From the NCBI GenBank assembly GCA_035479655.1, contig DATIIL010000005.1, positions 166,213-190,212 of the forward strand: a stretch of 24,000 nucleotides of DNA, written 5' to 3'. The notes beneath the pieces are model-generated. The model did not search any database, was not told the origin of the DNA, and saw only the letters and a list, made by a program, of their open reading frames with translations. Source of the stretch: Candidatus Saccharimonadales bacterium (lineage in GTDB: Bacteria; Patescibacteriota; Saccharimonadia; Saccharimonadales; UBA4665). Position numbers and translations under genes: made by a program. Positions 5,287 through 13,853 of the stretch are shown here, one piece after another (the first letter of the stretch is position 1; each line of letters begins with the position of its first letter).

Positions 5287-6972
5287 CTAGAGATCGGTGT
5301 ACATATTGGTGTCCAGTGCGGTACGCAACCGCGTGGCATGGGCCGAGGTGTGCTCGCCGTAAGCTAGGCGCATAACTTCGGAGCCGATCCAGCGCGCCTG
5401 CCACTCGGCCGGGCTCAGCTCGGGCCGGGCGGCTGTTGCGCTCAGACAAGGTTCCACGCGGATACGCAGCGGGTCGTCGGCCATAAAGACTCGAGCGGCA
5501 TCTACCATAGTCGGATCGCTGAGTATGTCTCGCTTAAAACCGGGACCTACTTTGTCCGCGCGGTCCCCAAGTAGATCACTAAACAAGGCGGGGTCGAAGC
5601 GGAGCTGTCCATCCCCATCCGCAAATAAGCTGTACATAAATGTGGGCCCGAGAATTTTCGAGATTTTCCACCTTTCGGCCGACGACAGCTGGTTCGGGAG
5701 CTGTTCGCCAAATATGCTGCGTGCGAACTTATACGCATAGTTGACCACGTAGTCTTCATGGACAACCAGGCTGCCGTCTGGCTCGAGCGTGGAGTCCTCT
5801 AGGGCACGTTTGAAGTTGACGTGTTTCGTTTTATCAAATCGCTCATTATGTTCCACTAAGATGGTCGGAATGAGCTCGGCAACCGGATAGCCGAGCGCGG
5901 CAAGGCGTTCGCGCGGTTGCGCGAGGCCGTAAGCCATACCACTCATCAACCACAGCAGCGCGTGATCGTTGCTTGGCCGGAGGAAGGAATTTCGTGCCTC
6001 AATGTAGTCTTCGACGACCCGCAGCTGGGTACGATGGGTGGTAATGCGAGGGGTGATGCGCTGATTCTTGATGTCATCGAGCAAGTCGGCCGATCCGCTG
6101 ATAGAGATGTACACGCAGTCCGAAATAGCCGCATTCAGGCCGGAAACCACCCGCAGCGTCTGTTCGATCCGAGCCGCGTCGCTGCCAATAATCGGGCGGC
6201 CATGCCGCTGCCCGTTCTGCTCTGTAATCTGGTAAGCGCTGATATTGAGGTGGTCGCCGAGCGGCAGCACATACAGGCCGAGTTCGGCCGCTGCGTCGGC
6301 CAAGCTCGTTCGCAGGAGCGTCTCGCGCTCGTCCAGCGCTTCTGGCGGGCCGGGAGTAAGACGGATTTCACCGAGGCCCGCGCCGCCGTCATAGTATCCA
6401 CGCTGGTGGGTCTCGGGGCCAAAGCGCCACTCTACCATACCCATAGCTTGGCTGTAGGCGAGCATTTCGTCGTAACTTATGCCTTTGGGCGGCTTGGGGC
6501 TAGCCAGGGTCGGGGTAGAGAAACGCTTATAGACCAGGTAATTTACCCAGTCCTTGACGGTGAAATTGGGGATGCTGTCTAGCCAGCGCTGCTTTTTCTG
6601 GGCTTCGGCGGCAGTTGTAGGTACCAACTGGCCGATGGTGGCGACGGCATCAAGGCGCAGCTCGGCAATTTTGGCCTCGCGCGCTGCTTCATCGGCGGGA
6701 TGCTGGACGCTCGACGGCAAGCCAATTGCCGCATAGATTGATCCGCTGTCCAGCAAGAACTCTATCTCTTTGCTCGCAAGAAACAACAGTGGCTCACCAT
6801 GCTCGCCGTGGGCAATTTCTTGCTGGACGGTGAGCATTCGGTCGCGCATAAAGACTCGTTCGTCGAAGGGCAGCAGCGTCTCGGCGGCCAGAGTTTTAGA
6901 AGGGTAGGCCTCTGTCAGCATAGTTGCAGGATTATAGTATAGCTTGGGTTGTTTATCAATATTGGATGCCAA
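5287..6972 (-). CDS. Hypothetical protein (561 aa), backbone-like composition
   Basis: A long uninterrupted ORF with backbone-like GC, convergent with rnc. The internal plus-strand ORFs look like antisense shadows. I can name no domain. Confidence 0.8.
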   Translation of the reverse strand: MASNIDKQPKLYYNPATMLTEAYPSKTLAAETLLPFDERVFMRDRMLTVQQEIAHGEHGEPLLFLASKEIEFLLDSGSIYAAIGLPSSVQHPADEAAREAKIAELRLDAVATIGQLVPTTAAEAQKKQRWLDSIPNFTVKDWVNYLVYKRFSTPTLASPKPPKGISYDEMLAYSQAMGMVEWRFGPETHQRGYYDGGAGLGEIRLTPGPPEALDERETLLRTSLADAAAELGLYVLPLGDHLNISAYQITEQNGQRHGRPIIGSDAARIEQTLRVVSGLNAAISDCVYISISGSADLLDDIKNQRITPRITTHRTQLRVVEDYIEARNSFLRPSNDHALLWLMSGMAYGLAQPRERLAALGYPVAELIPTILVEHNERFDKTKHVNFKRALEDSTLEPDGSLVVHEDYVVNYAYKFARSIFGEQLPNQLSSAERWKISKILGPTFMYSLFADGDGQLRFDPALFSDLLGDRADKVGPGFKRDILSDPTMVDAARVFMADDPLRIRVEPCLSATAARPELSPAEWQARWIGSEVMRLAYGEHTSAHATRLRTALDTNMYTDL

Positions 6973-7601: not shown

Positions 7602-8027
7602 ATGAGCAGCATAGACCAGCAATTCGTAGAATTTATCGTAAAGTCCCTGGTTGGCAAACCTGACGCCGTACAGATAGAACGGCGCATCGATGAGAAAGGT
7701 GTGTTATTAGAACTAACCGTTGATCCCGAGGATTTGGGTCGGGTAATTGGCAAACGCGGCGCGACCGCACAGTCGCTGCGCACACTGCTGCGCGCCTTGG
7801 GCACCAAGAACGACGCCCGCTACAACCTTAAAATTGTGGATAATGGCGAGCCGGGCATGAGTCACGGTGGTAGCAGCACGAGCGATGACAGTGGTAGCAT
7901 GAGCACGCCGTCTGATGACGACGATGACGCCGTAGCCTCCACCGCCCACGACGACACCGAGTCCGAGAACAGCGTGGTGAGCAAAACCCGCAAAGAGCTA
8001 GAAGAGCTAGACGATCTGGACGTGTAA
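7602..8027 (+). CDS. KH-domain RNA-binding protein (YlqC/KhpA-like) with acidic Ser/Asp tail
   Basis: DLGRVIGKRGATAQSLRTLL contains the GXXG KH motif. AAGGAG lies upstream. The gene sits in the usual position after rpsP. Confidence 0.85.
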   Translation: MSSIDQQFVEFIVKSLVGKPDAVQIERRIDEKGVLLELTVDPEDLGRVIGKRGATAQSLRTLLRALGTKNDARYNLKIVDNGEPGMSHGGSSTSDDSGSMSTPSDDDDDAVASTAHDDTESENSVVSKTRKELEELDDLDV

Positions 8028-8176
8028 ACGTCGGCCGCATAAAAACTGTTGTCAAAGTTCTTACGCTGCGTTACACTGAATTTTAGTCGACCACGACTGA
8101 CCTTAAAAACAAAAACTGTATGAGCTCATGCGAGCCACGTCGTTTGCAAGAACGATCTGGGAGCTTTATATGTGGC

Positions 8177-8207
8177 AAAAAGACCGGCAAATATGTCGGT
8201 CTTTTTG
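8177..8207. terminator. Bidirectional rho-independent terminator
   Basis: The stem agaccg/cggtct is flanked by A5 and T5. It can terminate the KH gene (plus strand) and the GHKL operon (minus strand). Confidence 0.75.
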
Positions 8208-8282
8208 TTTGTCTTTGTTATTTGGCTGAGTATAGTGCCACCGCTCAGACCCGCCACGCACATCGAGATATGCGAGAAGGGA

Positions 8283-8362
8283 GTGAGCGGTGGGCAGAAC
8301 GGGATTCGTTGGGGCCGCTTGCGCGACCTCATACGAGCCGTTCTGCCCACCTGCCTGCTCAC
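8283..8362 (-). other. Long imperfect 3' hairpin of the HTH-GHKL operon
   Basis: gtgagcggtgggcagaacgg (8283-8302) pairs with ccgttctgcccacc..tgctcac (8338-8362) with a 5 nt bulge. The segment tgagcggtgg (8284-8293) is also complementary to ccaccgctca at 8238-8247. Confidence 0.55.
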
Positions 8363-8395
8363 GCAGACAAATCGCTCCTGAGAGGTATTTACTTG

Positions 8396-10066
8396 TTATT
8401 CAGTTTCGTCACCCGCGCGCTTCCGCGAGCGGCTGGCGCTGGGGATGATGATCAGCTCCGCGTAGGGACCGGCCTTCAGGTCGATCGGTGCCCGGGTGAT
8501 CTCCAGGTCCAGTTCCAGCGACAGCGCCACCAGCAGTTCCAGGGTGAGCCACTCCTGTAGGTGCATGATCCTGCGATCGTGCTCCGTGGTGTGCTCACCC
8601 TTGGTTTCGTCCATCAGCACCCATGTGGGATGCCGAATGTTGAACGTCAGGATGCACTCGTCGTGGCTGTATTCCCACAACCGGTCAGAGGCCAGGGCCT
8701 CATGTGCGTACCGAAGCGGGAAACCACGACGCGGATCGTGCGGCCGGCGTTCGGGCCGTGGGCCGACCACCTTACGGCGTTTAGAAGACGTGCCCGTCTT
8801 GGGCGTGGCTTCTTCCCGTCGCTTGGTGGCCGCCAGGGCATCCTCCTGGGAGGGCAGGAACCTGGCCAGGTCGGCCAGATCGCTGTTCTTCCGGAAGAGT
8901 TCGCGCAGCCGTTCCAGCGACCGCTGTCCGAGTCGGGCATGACGCTCCTCGCGCAGCGCTTCGCGCTCGTTCTCGAGGAGGTTGCTGCCGTACCGGCTGA
9001 ACCAGGTATCTACGACGAAGTAGAAGTTGGTCAGCAGGTCGTTGGCCACGAACAGGTCACGGGACTTACCCAGCTCAAGGTGTTCGACGGTGATCATACC
9101 CTCAAAGTAGCCCGAGCGCAGTGCGCTGATGGCTTCCTTGATGGAGTCGATCTGTTGCCACTGCGTCCCCATGAGCTGGGTAGAGAATTTACCCTTGACC
9201 GGGATGGGGTTGTCCGGATCCTCTTTGCTGCGGACCCACACTTCTCCTTCCCGTTGTCCGCTGTCGCCGCGTCGAGCCTTGAACAGCTCGAACGTGACGC
9301 GGCCGCAGACGCTGTCTTCGATGGTGACGATGTCGAGCCGCTCGCCCCGGAATTCATGGGGGTCGATGGTTCGCCATTCCACGCTACCGTCGGCAGCGAT
9401 CAGTACGGCCAGCACCGTAGTGCCCAGGCGCCGCATGGCCGCGCTAAACCGGCCGCGGATGATCGATTCCACGTCGTTGAGCGACGCGATGCCGATCGTC
9501 CTGTCCTGCGTGATCTCGTTGAGACGGACCATAGTCCGCCACCCGTTGATCATCGGCAGGCCGGCCAGCCGGATGAACGGCGCAGCCGGGTTTGGGCTGA
9601 AGGTCGGGCGGGTGGTGAGCGGGATCTGCACGGCCTTTTGGGCCTTGATCTTCTCCTGCTCAAAGGTCCACACGTTGACCACCGGACTGCCCGCGGGTTG
9701 GCTCCAGAACTCGAACAACCGGCACTTGGCCAGCGGCGAGATCAGACCCAGCCCGAAGCGTCCGATGCTTCCCGGCTTCTTGATGCCCTTGCCGACAGTC
9801 AGAAGTGCTTCATTGAATCGCTCTTCCGTCACGCCTTCGCCATTGTCACAGACGATGATCGAGCGCTTGGGAAGGTCGACGCCAATGAAGATCGTCGGAG
9901 CTCCAGCGTCGAGGGCGTTCTGTACGCCTTCGGCCACGGTTTGAGCCAGCGAGGGATAGGTGTTGGAGTACGTCATGAACGTCTCCCCCATGTGCACCCC
10001 CGCATCGACCATCCGGACATCTCCGTGCGGCGGCCGACCCGGCTGAGGGGCCGATTTCGTTGGCAT
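8396..10066 (-). CDS. GHKL-superfamily ATPase (HATPase_c_3 / MORC-like N-terminal domain), 556 aa
   Basis: Bergerat-fold motifs are in order: N box AEGVQNALDAG, G1 box CDNGEGV, G2 box GRFGLGL. AGGAGG lies 4 nt upstream of the ATG at 10066 and overlaps the upstream gene's stop codon. GC3 is high. The C-terminal two-thirds are unassigned. Confidence 0.85.
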   Translation of the reverse strand: MPTKSAPQPGRPPHGDVRMVDAGVHMGETFMTYSNTYPSLAQTVAEGVQNALDAGAPTIFIGVDLPKRSIIVCDNGEGVTEERFNEALLTVGKGIKKPGSIGRFGLGLISPLAKCRLFEFWSQPAGSPVVNVWTFEQEKIKAQKAVQIPLTTRPTFSPNPAAPFIRLAGLPMINGWRTMVRLNEITQDRTIGIASLNDVESIIRGRFSAAMRRLGTTVLAVLIAADGSVEWRTIDPHEFRGERLDIVTIEDSVCGRVTFELFKARRGDSGQREGEVWVRSKEDPDNPIPVKGKFSTQLMGTQWQQIDSIKEAISALRSGYFEGMITVEHLELGKSRDLFVANDLLTNFYFVVDTWFSRYGSNLLENEREALREERHARLGQRSLERLRELFRKNSDLADLARFLPSQEDALAATKRREEATPKTGTSSKRRKVVGPRPERRPHDPRRGFPLRYAHEALASDRLWEYSHDECILTFNIRHPTWVLMDETKGEHTTEHDRRIMHLQEWLTLELLVALSLELDLEITRAPIDLKAGPYAELIIIPSASRSRKRAGDETE

Positions 10067-10074
10067 GACCCCTC

Positions 10075-10818
10075 CTAGTTGTCGGTCGGACGCTGGCCGC
10101 GAGCACGCTGTCCGTCGTGCAGCCGCTCCGAGTTGAGCCCTTCGGTGAGAAGGACCATGTCGAAGACCACCTTCGGACCGACCAGCTCGCGAACTTGCGC
10201 CCGTTGGGCGGGCGTGTAGCGACCCGACATCACTTCCCGAAGCAGCGGTGCGGCCTTGCCGAACGCTTCACCCAGCTGGATGGCGATAGCCATCAAGTCG
10301 GGCGCGCCCGGCGTGGCGTTTGCCGCTGCCGCCGCGGTTGCTACGGGGACGGTCGCGGTGGTGGCAGGTTCGTCACCCGGGTTGTAGGCCCGATCGCCGA
10401 GCTTCTCGCGAAGCTTGGCTTGGGCTTTCTTGAGCCGGTCGCCATACTCCGTTTGCAGCGCGGTGAGCGTCTTCGTCGGCTTCAGGAACTTCGAGTCGCC
10501 GCGGGCGGCATTGAGCACCGCCTGCGACTGCTTGACGTGGCCGATCCGCATGGCCTGTGCCAGGTCGATGACCCGGTAGGCCAGCAACTGCCCGACGTAG
10601 TACTCGAGTTCATTGACCTCGCGCGTCGGACCGTTGACCGCTTCCAACAGGTGCCAGAGGCGGTTGATGTGTGCGCCGGTCGGCGGGTGTTTCCCGCTGA
10701 GCCATCCCTGTACAGTACCAGGAACGGTCACCGTGAAGCCCGCCACCAGGCGGAGGTCGAGTCCTGCTGCACGCAGCTCTTCGACGAGCTGGTTGGCAAG
10801 GCTCCGGCTCTCGGCCAT
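10075..10818 (-). CDS. Putative XRE-like helix-turn-helix protein (247 aa)
   Basis: ORF 10075..10887 trimmed to the ATG at 10818 (MAESRSL...), which has GAGGAGG 5 nt upstream. The N-terminal segment VAGFTVTVPGTVQGWLSGKHPPTGAHINRLWHLL resembles an HTH_XRE motif. The gene appears translationally coupled to the GHKL gene. Confidence 0.75.
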   Translation of the reverse strand: MAESRSLANQLVEELRAAGLDLRLVAGFTVTVPGTVQGWLSGKHPPTGAHINRLWHLLEAVNGPTREVNELEYYVGQLLAYRVIDLAQAMRIGHVKQSQAVLNAARGDSKFLKPTKTLTALQTEYGDRLKKAQAKLREKLGDRAYNPGDEPATTATVPVATAAAAANATPGAPDLMAIAIQLGEAFGKAAPLLREVMSGRYTPAQRAQVRELVGPKVVFDMVLLTEGLNSERLHDGQRARGQRPTDN

Positions 10819-10901
10819 GGCGCCTCCTCTCTTCTTGTGAAACCAGCACCGGCGGTTGCCGATGCTTCTTACAATCTCTCCTCTCAAGAGTGATCATGCT
10901 A

Positions 10902-10930
10902 GTTATACTATTTTTCAGGCTCTGATACAA
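10902..10930 (-). promoter_or_regulatory. Candidate promoter of the HTH-GHKL operon
   Basis: Minus strand reads TTGTAT-17 nt-TATAAC. The leader contains the hairpin gcatcggc-aacc-gccggtgc. Confidence 0.45.
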
Positions 10931-10952
10931 GCATGAGCGTAGCCGTCGGGGC

Positions 10953-10985
10953 ATAATAAAAGAGCCGAACGAGTCGGCTCTTTTG
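10953..10985 (-). terminator. Rho-independent terminator after the LPXTG protein gene
   Basis: An 8 bp stem agagccga/tcggctct is flanked by A and T runs on both sides. Confidence 0.75.
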
Positions 10986-11008
10986 GTTGATTTTCTAGAG
11001 TGTTTGTC

Positions 11009-11659
11009 TTAGGCGTTCTGCGCGCGACGGTGGCGCAAGTAGTAACCGACGTAACCAGCCACAGCGACGATGCTCGAAATGATGAACACGTTGCTACCGG
11101 TACCGGTGTCCGGCAAAACCGGAGGGGTTACTGGCGGCGTAGGAGGGGTCGGTGGGGTCGGAGGAGTCGGCGGGGTAACAGGGGTACAACTCTGAGTACC
11201 ACCGTGCAACGAGCCGAGTAGCAGACCCTTAGTGTATTGCGGGCCACCGTTTGCGTCCGTGGCGTTCGAACCGCGCAGCAGGTCAACCTGGTAGAAGCAG
11301 TCAGGCAATTTTACGTTAATGGTGTGCGTGCCCGGAGCGAACGTTTCGGTTTTGTGGGCAAACAGTTTTTGCTGATCGTAGGGCTGGCCCTTGTCGGCGT
11401 TTGGCGCTTGCCAAGCGGCAAAGGTTACGGCCTGGGTACAGTCGGTGCCGCTCACGATAACCGTGGCGCTCACCGTGCCGTCGTTGTTCAGCACAAAACG
11501 GCTGTTTGATTGACCAACAGTGTCTCTGTTACCAACCGTGGTCACCGTACAGGTGGTCGACGTGCTGGTAGCAGTGTCGGCGCTCACAACAGCGGGGACG
11601 AAGCTCAAAAGGCTTATCACGCTGGCTGCGCCTAGCAGAGTACGCTTAAAAGTATTCAT
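11009..11659 (-). CDS. LPXTG-anchored surface protein with Pro-Thr linker
   Basis: The signal peptide is MNTFKRTLLGAASVISLLSFVPAVVSA. A (TPP)n linker is present. The sorting signal is LPDTG, a hydrophobic segment and RHRRAQNA. AGGAG lies upstream. GC content matches the backbone. Confidence 0.85.
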   Translation of the reverse strand: MNTFKRTLLGAASVISLLSFVPAVVSADTATSTSTTCTVTTVGNRDTVGQSNSRFVLNNDGTVSATVIVSGTDCTQAVTFAAWQAPNADKGQPYDQQKLFAHKTETFAPGTHTINVKLPDCFYQVDLLRGSNATDANGGPQYTKGLLLGSLHGGTQSCTPVTPPTPPTPPTPPTPPVTPPVLPDTGTGSNVFIISSIVAVAGYVGYYLRHRRAQNA

Positions 11660-11692
11660 TTCTCACAAACTCCTCAATAAGTAACAATATGT

Positions 11693-11721
11693 ATTATACT
11701 ATCATAAACACAATATGTCAA
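11693..11721 (-). promoter_or_regulatory. Consensus promoter driving the LPXTG gene, directly after HH-E
   Basis: Minus strand reads TTGACA-17 nt-TATAAT exactly. Confidence 0.7.
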
Positions 11722-11741
11722 GCATGTTACCAAGCTTGCGG

Positions 11742-11792
11742 CCGCTTTCGCTGTTTCCAGCTCATCAGCATGAACACACATTCATGGAGCGG
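11742..11792 (-). ncRNA. Type III hammerhead ribozyme HH-E (canonical core)
   Basis: Minus strand reads CCGC-TC|CATGAA-tgtgtg-TTCATG-CTGATGA-GCTG-gaaa-CAGC-GAAA-GCGG. Predicted cleavage is 3' of the C at 11787. Confidence 0.9.
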
Positions 11793-11890
11793 TAAAGCAG
11801 ACACAGAGTTTGATAGTAGAGTAGGAAGTTGTTTTAGTCCGAGGACCAAAACACCAATCCACATCCACATCTCTGTGAATGCTTTACCGC
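11789..11890 (-). other. Long imperfect 3' UTR hairpin of cassette X1
   Basis: The 20 nt arms gcggtaaagcagacacagag (11789-11808) and ctctgtgaatgctttaccgc (11871-11890) have a 2 nt internal mismatch. An apical stem gtttt.gtc-cgag-gac.aaaac is present. Confidence 0.7.
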
Positions 11891-11947
11891 CCGTTGAAGG
11901 GCAGGCTACTCCCAGAGTGCATGGGTGAGGGTAGTGACCCCTTCAGG

Positions 11948-12655
11948 TTAGACGACCACGATCTTCAGGCCCGGGGGCATGTCGCCGCCGAAGAAGCCGC
12001 GGATGTCGTCTTCGACCTGTTGCTGGATGCGCTGCCGCTCGGCCTCGTACGCCGCTTCAGCCGCTGCCGCCGCGCGCAGTTCGCCCGTCGGGTCGGCGAA
12101 GTCCATGATGACTCCTTCGACCAGCGGGTCGATGTTCTCGTCGTCCTTGTAGAGCGCGGCGACGCGCGTGAAGGCGACGTCGTCGTGCTCCAGGTTGACC
12201 GCCAGCACGTGGCTGACACCGTCGACCGAGAGCAGCCGCTCGCGCAGGCTGTCCAGGTCGTCGACCTGCGGCAGGTCGGCCCCGATGCAGACGTCGCCGC
12301 TCTTGAGCATGACGCTCATGAGGACGCTCTGCAGCGCCGCGATCAGCGTCTCCCGCTGGGCGGGGTCGCTGATGGTGACGGTGCCGATGGCCATGACGGT
12401 CTCGGTGCCGCCGTTGCCGTCGGGTCGCCAGCCGGACTCGGCGTCGTCCATGTCGTGCAGGTCGCGGTCCCAGACCACGGACTGCACGCCGGTGACGCCG
12501 GGGAGCTGAGTCAGCAGCACCAGGTGCTGCCAGTCGTTGGGCACCCGCCCGGCGACGCGGATCTCGATCTGGTCGGGCTCCGTGCCGGCGATGGCGGTGA
12601 ACGAGCCGAAGAACGGCTGGAAGAACGGCCGTTGGTTGTCGGGCGTCTCGAACAT
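11948..12655 (-). CDS. Hypothetical protein, GC-rich cassette cargo family 2 (235 aa)
   Basis: ORF 11948..12712 trimmed to the ATG at 12655 (MFETPDN...), which has AAGGAG 6 nt upstream. GC3 is high. The antisense ORF 11879..12730 is rejected. It shares long identical blocks with 13059..13598. Confidence 0.8.
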   Translation of the reverse strand: MFETPDNQRPFFQPFFGSFTAIAGTEPDQIEIRVAGRVPNDWQHLVLLTQLPGVTGVQSVVWDRDLHDMDDAESGWRPDGNGGTETVMAIGTVTISDPAQRETLIAALQSVLMSVMLKSGDVCIGADLPQVDDLDSLRERLLSVDGVSHVLAVNLEHDDVAFTRVAALYKDDENIDPLVEGVIMDFADPTGELRAAAAAEAAYEAERQRIQQQVEDDIRGFFGGDMPPGLKIVVV

Positions 12656-12694
12656 TCGAAACTCCTTGGTACTCTTCACTTCACTCGCCCAGTG

Positions 12695-12734
12695 CGAGCT
12701 AGCAAAAGGCAAAATATTACCTTCTGTTAGCTCG
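12695..12734 (-). promoter_or_regulatory. 5' leader hairpin of cassette X1
   Basis: The stem cgagcta (12695-12701) pairs with tagctcg (12728-12734), with an inner AAGG/CCTT helix and a ttgcctttt loop motif. The 3' arm can instead form CTCGC-actgg-GCGAG. Confidence 0.55.
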
Positions 12735-12812
12735 TACTGGACGCACTATCAAATACATTGTGTCTGCTAAGGTACTTAGCCATAGGCAAGAAGCCGTTGA
12801 CGAAGCGCACTT

Positions 12813-12841
12813 ATTATACAATTCGCGCGCTTTTATGTCAA
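12813..12841 (-). promoter_or_regulatory. Consensus promoter of cassette X1
   Basis: Minus strand reads TTGACA-17 nt-TATAAT exactly, 10 nt after the 3' end of HH-F. Confidence 0.75.
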
Positions 12842-12850
12842 CGGAGGTAA

Positions 12851-12903
12851 ACCGCTTTCGTCTTTTTAGACTCATCAGCATGAACACGCATTCATGGAGC
12901 GGT
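12851..12903 (-). ncRNA. Type III hammerhead ribozyme HH-F (canonical core)
   Basis: Minus strand reads ACCGC-TC|CATGAA-tgcgtg-TTCATG-CTGATGA-GTCT-aaaa-AGAC-GAAA-GCGGT. Predicted cleavage is 3' of the C at 12897. Confidence 0.9.
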
Positions 12904-13001
12904 AAAGCAGACACAGAGAGTTTGATAGTAGAGTAAGAAGTTGTTTCGTCCGAAGACGAAACACCAACCGCATCCACATCTCTCTGTGAATGCTTTACCG
13001 C
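12899..13001 (-). other. Long imperfect 3' UTR hairpin of cassette X2
   Basis: The 22 nt arms at 12899-12920 and 12980-13001 have the same 2 nt internal mismatch as X1. The apical 8 bp stem at 12943-12962 reads C(UUCG)G on the minus strand. Confidence 0.7.
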
Positions 13002-13058
13002 CCGTTGAAGGGCAGGCTACTCCCAGAGTGCATGGGTGAGGGTAGCGAGCCTTTCAGG

Positions 13059-13598
13059 TCAGACGACGTCCGCCAGGACCTCCTCGATCGTCTCCTCGAC
13101 ACTCGAGTCACCCTGGTACAGGATGGCGATCCGCGTGAGCGGGGCGCCGTGGAGGAGGTTGACCGCCAGCACGTGGCTGACACCGTCGACCGAGAGCAGC
13201 CGCTCGCGCAGGCTGTCCAGGTCGTCGATCGCCGGGATGTCCTCAACGATGCAGTAGTCGTCGTTCAGGAACATGACGCTCTCGATGACGCTCTGCAGCG
13301 TCGCGATCAGCGTCTCCCGCTGGGCGGGGTCGGCGATCGTGATGGTGGCGGTGGCCACGGTCGTGACGGCTTCCACGGCCTCGGCGGCGTTGTGGCTGTC
13401 GGCGAGGTCGCTCAACTCGTGCAGGTCGCGGTCCCAGACCACGGACTGCATGCCGGCGACGCCGGTGAGCAGGGTCTGCAGCACCAGGTGCTGCCACGCA
13501 TTCGGCACCTCGCCCATGATGCGGAGCTCGATGATCTCGGGCTTCACGCCGGCGGCGATGGTGACCGAACCGATGAACGGCACCCTGTCCTCGGACAT
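13059..13598 (-). CDS. Hypothetical protein, GC-rich cassette cargo family 2 (179 aa)
   Basis: ORF 13059..13697 trimmed to the ATG at 13598 (MSEDRVPF...), which has AAGGAG 7 nt upstream. GC3 is high. The antisense ORF 12990..13670 is rejected. Confidence 0.8.
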   Translation of the reverse strand: MSEDRVPFIGSVTIAAGVKPEIIELRIMGEVPNAWQHLVLQTLLTGVAGMQSVVWDRDLHELSDLADSHNAAEAVEAVTTVATATITIADPAQRETLIATLQSVIESVMFLNDDYCIVEDIPAIDDLDSLRERLLSVDGVSHVLAVNLLHGAPLTRIAILYQGDSSVEETIEEVLADVV

Positions 13599-13634
13599 GT
13601 GGTACTCCTTCGTGCTATATACTTCACTCGCCCA

Positions 13635-13680
13635 GTGCGAGCTACCAAAAGGCAACGAATTACCTTCTAGTAGCTCGCAC
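13635..13680 (-). promoter_or_regulatory. 5' leader hairpin of cassette X2
   Basis: A 10 bp stem pairs gtgcgagcta (13635-13644) with tagctcgcac (13671-13680). The loop carries ttgcctttt (minus strand). An alternative CTCGC-actgg-GCGAG hairpin lies downstream. Confidence 0.6.
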
Positions 13681-13761
13681 CGCAGGCGTACTATCAAACA
13701 AATCTAGTGTCTGCTAATGTGCTTTGCCATACGTAATAAAACCGATGACAAAGATAGTAAT

Positions 13762-13790
13762 ATTATACAATTTGATGTTGACTATGTCAA
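13762..13790 (-). promoter_or_regulatory. Consensus promoter of cassette X2
   Basis: Minus strand reads TTGACA-17 nt-TATAAT exactly, about 10 nt after the 3' end of HH-G. Confidence 0.75.
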
Positions 13791-13800
13791 CTAAGTATTG

Positions 13801-13853
13801 ACCGCTTTCGCTGTTTCCAGCTCATCAGCACAAATACACATTTGTGGAGCGGT
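13801..13853 (-). ncRNA. Type III hammerhead ribozyme HH-G (canonical core)
   Basis: Minus strand reads ACCGC-TC|CACAAA-tgtgta-TTTGTG-CTGATGA-GCTG-gaaa-CAGC-GAAA-GCGGT. Predicted cleavage is 3' of the C at 13847. Confidence 0.9.

Follow-up and report, generated by a model that had tools for sequence, protein, structure and literature searches.

The 24,000-nucleotide (nt) stretch of DNA from a soil Saccharibacterium (Candidatus Saccharimonadales; contig DATIIL010000005.1) analysed here, referred to below as the window, carries on its minus strand an operon of two genes, which encode a 247-residue helix-turn-helix (HTH)-like partner protein and a 556-residue GHKL ATPase. The operon is an accessory, self-contained unit that is read as horizontally acquired; that it is accessory, self-contained and obligately paired, that it has been inserted into a core operon of ribosomal-protein genes and that its family is seen almost only in ultra-small bacteria of the Candidate Phyla Radiation is firmly established. 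Concerning its function, the best reading, which we hold tentatively, is an accessory conflict module that regulates its own expression and has an ATP-driven clamp at its core. The most fitting description of the ATPase is a paraMORC-like GHKL+transducer enzyme whose C-terminal domain of ~105 residues is novel; it is neither a MORC nor a MutL protein. A structured RNA in the 3' untranslated region (UTR), the complementarity between the 5' and 3' UTRs and the excess in G+C content at third codon positions (GC3) of the pair over its flanks are new in this analysis. No description of the HTH-ATPase pair was found in the literature.

The operon and its insertion into a core operon

The features that define the locus are the following:

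8028-14778: insertion block from the KH-protein gene to trmD, containing the pair, the LPXTG-protein gene and three paralogues
10957-10985 (strand not given): terminator-like hairpin belonging to the LPXTG-protein gene upstream; it bounds the transcription unit of the pair on the upstream side (sequence and terminator scan)
10075-10818, minus strand: partner gene, 247 residues (open reading frame, profile scans, alignment and model)
10067-10080, minus strand: coupling junction, a TAG stop codon overlapping AGGAGG (read from sequence)
8396-10066, minus strand: GHKL+transducer ATPase gene, 556 residues (open reading frame, Pfam, predicted structure and alignment)
8174-8209, both strands: bidirectional terminator-like hairpin separating the pair from the convergent KH-protein gene (terminator scan)

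The partner gene comes first and the ATPase gene follows head to tail. The partner open reading frame (ORF) extends from 10887 to 10075 on the minus strand and would give 270 residues from a TTG or 247 residues from the ATG at 10818; the ATG is taken as the real start because the TTG sits within a conserved 5'UTR motif and the alignments of homologues begin at the ATG. A first-pass annotation of this DNA had proposed that the two genes are translationally coupled, and this was borne out: AACTAGGAGGGGTCATG joins the partner gene to the ATPase gene, and in the junction (...GAC AAC TAG GAGG GGTC ATG) the AG of the stop codon opens the AGGAGG, 8 nt ahead of the ATPase ATG. The same annotation placed the pair between two terminators, in agreement with the hairpins at 8174-8209 and 10957-10985.

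Based on 62 related contigs gathered via ribosomal protein S16, the conserved backbone of this region is g3563-NUDIX-rnc-rpsP-KH-trmD-NiSOD. In the 24 close relatives with both genes the gap from the KH-protein gene to trmD is 37-1557 nt and none (0/24) contains the pair, whereas the gap in the window is 6752 nt; the pair therefore lies in an insertion. Together with the LPXTG-protein gene and three tandem paralogous genes it forms a 6.75-kb insertion that splits the rpsP-trmD operon. Since some relatives have inserts of their own (0.5-1.5 kb), the KH/trmD site appears to be a hotspot.

The pair has a GC content of 0.63-0.65 and a GC3 of 0.79, compared with 0.583 and 0.686 (standard deviation, sd, 0.057) for the 24 other ORFs of the window. 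The first-pass annotation had described this composition as foreign-looking, GC-rich and like that of the neighbouring 'cassette cargo'. GC is indeed elevated and similar to that of the neighbours at 11690-14780, and the 24 contigs place the pair in an insertion; the GC3 excess within the window, however, is only ~1.8 sd. Across the family the GC3 of the pair exceeds that of the flanks in 29 of 33 loci, by up to 0.35, with very large contrasts in, for example, L027 (5267-7668; 0.55 vs 0.21) and L003 (5277-7656; 0.70 vs 0.44). The excess persists where synteny implies long residence, so recent transfer alone is an insufficient explanation.

The position of the pair varies by lineage: it is found after rpsJ, after groEL, or beside dnaE, lon or argS, and it directly follows groES-groEL in five loci and lon in one. 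The ATPases of L017 (5908-7683) and L018 (5893-7701) are 84% identical, while the adjacent GroELs share 75%, the other flanking proteins 47-65% and the partners 51% identity; this suggests that the ATPase gene at this syntenic site was recently replaced through recombination or transfer. Also, in several Saccharimonadia genomes (L003 5117-10240; L001, L010) the pair is located within a multi-gene island with NUDIX and PfkB genes, between rpsJ and rplC, two genes that are normally adjacent in the S10 operon.

A protein identical to that of the window is already on record from a Candidatus Saccharimonadales metagenome-assembled genome (protein search). Antisense ORFs over the ATPase gene (e.g. 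8561-10078 on the plus strand, 505 residues), which have similar counterparts in homologous loci, were not accepted as genes: they are interpreted as shadow ORFs opposite a gene with high GC3, and their apparent conservation mirrors that of the ATPase. The RNA gene scan found no tRNA or tmRNA genes in the window.

Family size, pairing and distribution

An exhaustive profile search retrieved 423 cluster representatives (50% identity) of the ATPase family at E<=1e-30, and nearly all of the best 150 of these are 530-630 residues long; Saccharibacteria or Parcubacteria account for almost all of the clusters. Word-indexed protein searches recovered just 20 ATPase and 4+4 partner relatives, a strong under-count relative to the exhaustive search. 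A single-pattern search of 185,579 GTDB species representatives gave 29 loci, nearly all of them in Saccharibacteria, Saccharimonadia, Parcubacteria or Sungiibacteriota; the few loci with other labels have flanks of the type seen in Candidate Phyla Radiation (CPR) bacteria or lie on short contigs. The family is found almost only in CPR bacteria. Matches to PHROGs are limited to the GHKL N-terminus, and the fold matches in BFVD are to generic GHKL proteins (topo II, rIIA and Hsp90).

A partner homologue is located directly upstream and on the same strand in all 37 loci with upstream DNA, and the pair is obligate. The first-pass annotation held that homologues found consistently in housekeeping contexts without the partner gene would speak against a joint module; given the 37 of 37 loci, no homologue lacking the partner was seen, though the contexts are housekeeping ones. 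No third gene is universally conserved across the family loci. A Parcubacteria-like subclade (six loci) has an extra small β-rich ORF directly upstream of the partner, which results in a three-gene version of the operon. Its core motif is YAVTF...ITFSL..W.G...KGQVV.L..IQKFAKGWRA..ARPV, it is absent from the window, and the one member scanned (L025) has no match in Pfam. The small β-rich upstream ORF is located at:

L025: 4809-5174
L026: 596-880
L029: 4867-5223
L030: 4871-5182
L033: 4125-4580
L038: 2258-2560

Domains and motifs of the ATPase

In the window ATPase, Pfam HATPase_c_3 is matched with 45.3 bits (cut-off 25; E=1.2e-11) over residues 40-149 only. All motifs of the GHKL superfamily are present (I, ExxxNxxD; II, DxGxG; III, GxxGxG; IV, Thr), and those of the Bergerat fold read E46-GVQ-N50-A-L-D53-A, D74-N-G-E-G78 and G102-R-F-G-L-G107. 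The complete Bergerat fold named in the first-pass annotation is therefore present, with the correction that the spacing of motif I is E-x3-N and not E-x2-N. Residues E46, N50, D53, D74, G76, G78, G102, F104, G105, G107 and T178 are conserved in 30-31 of 31 members, and the SGYFEG motif (318-323) is likewise invariant or nearly so. R336, just after the transducer-like domain, is invariant in 31/31, lies where a transducer residue that reaches the gamma-phosphate would be expected and is likely the phosphate-sensing basic residue. Judged by the invariant motifs I-IV and R336, the ATPase is apparently enzymatically active.

The AlphaFold2 model, built with 18 homologues, has a mean predicted local distance difference test (pLDDT) score of 82. 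It consists of the GHKL domain (residues ~30-190), a second α/β domain (~196-330), a 50-residue helix (343-393) followed by more helices, a disordered Lys/Arg-rich linker (420-447) and a compact α/β domain (450-555). The first-pass annotation could name no domain in the large C-terminal region. This region can now be divided into a transducer, a long helix and a basic linker; the statement still holds for the last ~105-residue domain, which matches nothing in PDB sequences or Pfam.

Foldseek against the PDB aligned 379-419 columns with Hsp90 N+M, GyrB-43K, the N-terminal domain (NTD) of PMS1 and MORC3 (E 1e-10 to 1e-12). The top matches are those to Hsp90 N+M (E ~1e-12), the highest target-normalised template modelling (TM) score is that of PMS1-NTD (0.59), and the best sequence-level PDB matches are the N-terminal domains of MutL and PMS2 (E 1e-4 to 1e-3). 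Based on these matches to GHL ATPases, the second domain is predicted to be a transducer/S5-type domain.

The family models of known GHKL proteins do not cover the window ATPase. NCBIfam models of MutL, TopoVI-B and HSP90 score far under threshold (MutL TIGR00585, 24.3 bits vs a cut-off of 180; Hsp90/HtpG NF010683, 14.2 bits vs 455), and no match outside the GHKL N-terminal stretch was found in NCBIfam, PADLOC or PHROGs. The MORC-defining S5 motif GhXhhpXXRhl, as defined in PMC2292703, was found in 0/31 members by regular-expression search. The description of the ATPase as MORC-like thus goes too far: as it lacks the MORC-specific S5 motif, the protein is paraMORC-like and not MORC. Concerning the C-terminal 130 residues, neither the MutL endonuclease motif DQHA(X)2E(X)4E nor an HxH motif is found in any of the 31 members. 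Of the 31, 15 contain a loose PD-(D/E)xK pattern, without any conserved acidic or lysine column, and in the 31 members the C-terminal domain has no match to DUF4263 or to any other Pfam entry.

The partner protein

The partner was described earlier as XRE-like. HTH profile and fold matches recur across the family, although they are weak and the window protein itself is below the Pfam threshold, so that the protein is weakly but consistently XRE-HTH-like. HTH_3, HTH_31, HTH_23 and HTH_17 each match 2-6 of 34 family members (best E 1.6e-5). The model, built from a 7-sequence alignment (pLDDT 70), is all-helical, and its Foldseek neighbours are uniformly XRE-type HTH proteins (HigA, Stl, DdrO, Aca10, C.Kpn2I and SinR). 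The N-terminal ~50 residues superpose on XRE HTHs with a root-mean-square deviation of 2.1-2.9 A, each match being individually insignificant (E>0.7).

The alignment begins with a conserved N-terminal XRE-like HTH (residues ~14-60) that contains an invariant Trp. Another helical module comes next, then a long helix, a linker of variable sequence rich in Ala/Pro/Thr and, at the C-terminus, a conserved helical domain of ~55 residues (PLA..L.SD.FT.E.R..LR.L.G.D..F.L.N.L.RLCSERAR). Identity between relatives is 30-50% for the partner vs 40-60% for the ATPase, and the partner evolves faster.

Promoter, untranslated regions and structured RNA

The regulatory features of the pair, all on the minus strand, are the following:

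10902-10930: promoter-like element, -35 TTGTAT (10930-10925), 17-nt spacer and -10 TATAAC (10907-10902) (read from sequence)
10819-10895: 5'UTR, with the conserved GATCACTCTTGAGAGG at 10895-10880 (includes the CTC-N-GAG core; 5' arm of the predicted UTR pairing), a hairpin and the Shine-Dalgarno sequence AGAGGAGG
8370-8385: 3' arm CCUCUCAGGAGCGAUU, the complement of the 16 nt with which the 5'UTR motif begins (duplex prediction)
8279-8382: structured RNA motif in the 3'UTR, with a closing helix, three internal hairpins and a long inner helix (covariance)
8238-8293: alternative-fold hairpin re-using the 3' strand of the closing helix, CCGCUCACUCC (inverted repeat I6, fold and clade alignment)

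The clade of the window comprises the window, L001, L003, L010, L011, L013 and L035, with L034 added for the 5' side. The promoter was not listed by a generic scan because its -35 box matches in just 3/6 positions. The -10 box, which in the clade has an upstream TG, and its spacing to GATCACTC are conserved in eight loci with unrelated upstream flanks. GATCACTC itself is invariant in the eight clade members and is followed by a CTC-N-GAG palindromic core and then by a covarying hairpin. This upstream block is read as a putative promoter, transcription start and candidate operator (CTC-N-GAG).

In all seven clade loci the 5'UTR opens with 16-24 nt whose complement lies at the beginning of the 3'UTR. 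The predicted duplex of the window has an energy of -23.4 kcal/mol (0/300 shuffles as good); those of the clade range from -17 to -28 kcal/mol with z-scores of -2.3 to -5.1, and a second helix covaries. Other Saccharibacteria-type clades have the same 5'-3' complementarity with unrelated sequences, including a perfect 15-mer in L007 and 10-mers in L012 and L014. In 15 of 31 loci the longest exact 5'-3' complement stands out from shuffled sequences (p<=0.033), and in the Parcubacteria-like clade the exact-complement test detected no complementarity. This test was used in place of a long-window RNAduplex comparison of cognate and non-cognate UTRs, which was too noisy. For the clade, pairing between the two ends of the mRNA is the favoured interpretation of these predicted duplexes. 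Such pairing occurs in bacterial mRNAs such as icaR of Staphylococcus aureus. As in icaR, the 3'UTR of the pair is complementary to the 5'UTR of the same transcript (here predicted from sequence); the 5' arm, however, is not the ribosome-binding site of the first gene, and in the window clade it is the extreme 5' end of the predicted transcript.

The structured RNA element is 104-120 nt long across the clade loci, begins a few nt after the ATPase stop codon and has an inner helix of 9 bp. With only seven sequences, 89.8% of the cells are paired, compared with 37-48% when the partners are slid; compensatory changes are seen in 11 pairs, and 0/500 shuffles reach the covariation score. The covariance model R1 gives matches only in the seven clade loci (70-117 bits). 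Rfam has no match at gathering thresholds in the window, and the miRNA matches at E<=1 in 8020-8420 are at chance level; blastn found no other conserved downstream element in the other clades. The G-U pairs on the sense strand favour an RNA made in the direction of the genes. Also, the 3' strand of the closing helix can pair instead with a downstream copy of its partner, which results in mutually exclusive folds, and an equivalent pairing is found in the clade alignment. Conservation past the repeats and the G-U pairs favour a role at the RNA level over paired operators or repeats at the ends of an element.

Proposed function and mechanism

Based on its architecture and on the mechanism of GHL ATPases, from which the DNA binding, the contact between partner and ATPase, the clamp action and the conflict role are all inferred, the pair may work as follows. 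The HTH protein would bind the palindromic CTC-N-GAG at the transcription start and thereby autoregulate the operon; its conserved C-terminal helical domain may dock onto the ATPase or direct it, with the HTH providing DNA targeting. The ATPase would be held as a constitutive dimer by its C-terminal domain, and binding of ATP would close the N-terminal GHKL gate, as in MutL, Hsp90 and MORC, around nucleic acid gripped by the basic linker. DNA would then be clamped or compacted, or processes on it obstructed, rather than cut. The probable target is incoming or foreign DNA, as expected for a conflict or defence-type module. In the window clade, expression may be further tuned by the pairing of the 5' and 3' UTRs and by the ~105-nt structured RNA at the 3' end.

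Autoregulation is argued for by the promoter and 5'UTR motif, which are kept across unrelated flanks, and by the HTH signal in several partner members. A conflict or defence role is favoured because of the accessory, acquired nature of the pair and the precedent of paraMORC and GHKL-Shedu proteins (PMC2292703, PMC12137116). Several observations weigh against this reading. The first-pass annotation had pointed to defence systems, and in PADLOC-DB v2.0.0 no system model matched either protein: only the GHKL N-terminus of the ATPase matches TmtA (E=2.8e-7, residues 36-108, 1486-position model), and the partner matches PDC-S24 over the HTH at E=0.008. The window partner reaches 13.6 bits on Pfam HTH_31, below the cut-off of 27. 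No defence-island context surrounds the family loci: the neighbours are housekeeping genes (tuf-rpsJ, rplC, groES-groEL, pgi, dnaE, lon, argS, P-type ATPases), and PADLOC matches among 94 neighbours are merely scattered and generic. Among the same 94 neighbours there is no recurrent family of superfamily II helicases, DNA methylases or endonucleases. No relative was found in 2.9 million IMG/VR viral contigs (pattern search and tblastn). Concerning the ATPase, no nuclease or other effector domain was found in the family members, the profile of the C-terminal domain lacks a match in PDB sequences or Pfam, and its only invariant column is N476 (L463, W464 and H479 are nearly so). Finally, synteny is conserved within sublineages and the divergence of the ATPase is about that of moderately conserved flanking genes, a pattern which looks like stable vertical retention.

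A bolder version of the conflict reading, which we regard as doubtful, is a CPR-specific, nuclease-less system for defence or control of DNA uptake, in which the XRE-HTH protein would act as an adaptor that loads a paraMORC-like clamp on incoming DNA and so silences or blocks it, and in which the 3' RNA and the UTR pairing would be integral, as an expression gate or RNA cofactor. If true, bacteria with few known defences would turn out to have GHKL-based immunity of a new mechanistic class.

Alternative explanations

As an addiction or toxin-antitoxin-like selfish module, the pair would consist of an ATPase that is harmful when unrestrained and a fast-evolving HTH protein that serves as antidote and repressor, and it would persist by post-segregational pressure and not because it is of benefit. 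The order of an upstream HTH gene and a larger downstream protein with tightly coupled translation, the faster divergence of the partner (see identities above), the antitoxins and controller proteins among the structural neighbours of the HTH (HigA, C.Kpn2I) and the inserted, patchy and compositionally odd nature of the pair are all consistent with this. A 556-residue GHKL+transducer ATPase is, however, unlike known type II toxins, no toxin domain was found in the Pfam and PADLOC scans, and the stable synteny within lineages suits a useful gene equally well, so we consider addiction unlikely. Alternatively, the complementary sequences of the UTRs might be the terminal inverted repeats of a small mobile element, with the two proteins serving its movement or maintenance. 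These clade-specific complements, found in the 5'UTR and shortly past the stop codon, measure 8-15 nt when exact and 16-24 nt when imperfect and are significant in the 15 of 31 loci given above, and the insertion points are many and different. Still, we regard this as very improbable: recombinase, transposase and nuclease domains were not found in Pfam, PADLOC, NCBIfam and PHROG scans, a role at the RNA level is favoured by the G-U pairs of both the predicted duplexes and the RNA motif, and conservation does not stop at the repeats but takes in the promoter at one end and the RNA motif at the opposite one, which argues that the repeats are not the ends of the block.

The housekeeping context and the conserved lineage-level synteny would be expected of a host factor for DNA metabolism, i.e. 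a lineage-specific MutL/MORC-like ATPase for repair, recombination or nucleoid organisation with a DNA-targeting HTH subunit, replacing functions lost in CPR bacteria. The N-terminal domains of MutL and PMS2 as the best sequence matches among solved structures, the TM-score of PMS1-NTD and a layout of basic linker and C-terminal domain which parallels MutL point in the same direction. This explanation is nevertheless also an unlikely one, given that the ATPase reaches 24 bits on MutL models with cut-offs of >=180, none of the 31 members has the MutL endonuclease motif, all ~30 close relatives of the window organism are without the pair at this locus, the pair was found in 29 of 185,579 species representatives (though by a single-pattern search) and its composition is foreign-looking. 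Finally, the Hsp90 N+M domains at the top of the Foldseek list, the location after groES-groEL or lon and AHSA1-type (SRPBCC) domains in two neighbours would suit an Hsp90-like folding or remodelling ATPase with a dedicated regulator or co-factor in a proteostasis regulon. Hsp90 is over-represented in the PDB, however, and GyrB, MutL and MORC score equally well; the HSP90 family model gives 14 bits against a cut-off of 455, the C-terminal domain of Hsp90 was not found, the groEL context is restricted to one sublineage, and the HTH partner and the basic linker point to nucleic acid. We therefore consider a chaperone role quite unlikely.

CPR bacteria (Patescibacteria) have tiny genomes, few recognised defence systems and scant experimentally characterised biology. 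The family described here is sizeable and consists of uniform two-gene operons, which have repeatedly been inserted in conserved core operons and bring along a promoter and structured UTRs. As a conflict system, it would extend the defence repertoire by a nuclease-free GHKL clamp and offer a handle on the dealings of these epibionts with foreign DNA. Should it prove to be a factor for repair, chromatin or chaperone functions instead, it would substitute in a lineage-specific way for what was lost in genome reduction. Two further and independent leads, on communication between mRNA ends in an uncultivated phylum, are the covarying 3' RNA and the UTR complementarity that is specific to each clade.

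Comparison with known systems

Prokaryotic paraMORC families with GHKL+S5 architecture act in restriction-like systems (Iyer, Abhiman & Aravind 2008, PMC2292703). The pair resembles them in that its N-terminal GHKL domain has all ATP motifs and precedes a transducer/S5-type domain with a conserved basic residue, in a C-terminal extension peculiar to the family and in a sporadic distribution that suggests lateral mobility. It differs in that it has no linked helicase, methylase or endonuclease genes and has a fixed XRE-HTH partner instead, in its restriction to CPR bacteria, and in a C-terminal domain that is unrelated in sequence to the nuclease, TIR and HxH extensions of paraMORCs. VcSduA, a GHKL-clamp-nuclease Shedu, is a proven anti-phage protein whose ATPase glutamate is required (PMC12137116). 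The pair shares with VcSduA and type I-D Shedu (paraMORC3) a GHKL ATPase with a clamp-like middle domain and an accessory, acquired locus, whereas VcSduA is a single protein that ends in a PD-(D/E)xK DUF4263 nuclease and the pair has neither DUF4263 nor a conserved acidic/lysine motif, and has an obligatory separate HTH partner.

Concerning MORCs (eukaryotic MORC1-4 and prokaryotic MORCs), the common layout is a GHKL+S5 ATPase with coiled-coil-like helices after it; the sequence and fold matches include MORC3 and MORC2, and the ATP-driven dimerising DNA clamp of MORC is a plausible working model for the ATPase of the pair. The difference lies in the missing GhXhhpXXRhl motif and in the lack of CW or other chromatin-reader domains. 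MutL/PMS proteins provide the best PDB sequence matches and the best target-normalised overlap, and have the same order of ATPase, flexible linker and (dimerisation-type) C-terminal domain, but the ATPase of the pair is far under the MutL thresholds, lacks the C-terminal endonuclease motif and has no linked MutS. With XRE regulators (HigA, C-proteins, Aca, Stl, DdrO) the partner shares the N-terminal ~50 residues that superpose on them, the first place in the operon and a palindrome at the predicted transcription start; the matches are statistically weak, however, and the partner is much longer (247 residues) and adds to the HTH another helical module, a linker of low complexity and a conserved C-terminal domain of its own.

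Adjacent genes in the window

The remainder of the insertion contains the LPXTG-protein gene and three tandem units. The 216-residue product of the LPXTG-protein gene (11009-11659, minus strand) contains a Pro/Thr repeat and, as a cell-wall anchor motif, LPDTG (Gram_pos_anchor, E=4e-4). The sigma-70-type promoter of this gene, at 11721-11693, is perfect (12/12), and the terminator at 10957-10985 is its own. The region 11690-14780 consists of three tandem units of ~950-1110 nt, each with a GC-rich minus-strand ORF and an AT-rich spacer; conserved in the spacers are hairpins and a near-consensus promoter, TTGACATA-17-GTATAATA (e.g. 11721-11693). The tandem paralogue ORFs are, all on the minus strand:

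~11948-12712
13059-13697
13957-14547

The ORF at 11948-12712, the one minus-strand ORF scanned, has no Pfam match. These units are a paralogous gene family within the same insertion as the pair. The earlier label of a cassette, and with it the reading of the units as integron cassettes, was given up as unsupported: they are three tandem paralogous genes with a sigma-70-type promoter in each unit, and no integron feature was seen, though no search for an integrase or attC was made. Outside the insertion, a 561-residue ORF without a Pfam match (5287-6972, minus strand) is located between rnc and rpsP; as the gap between these two genes is ~35-1500 nt in the relatives, it may be a second lineage-specific insertion.

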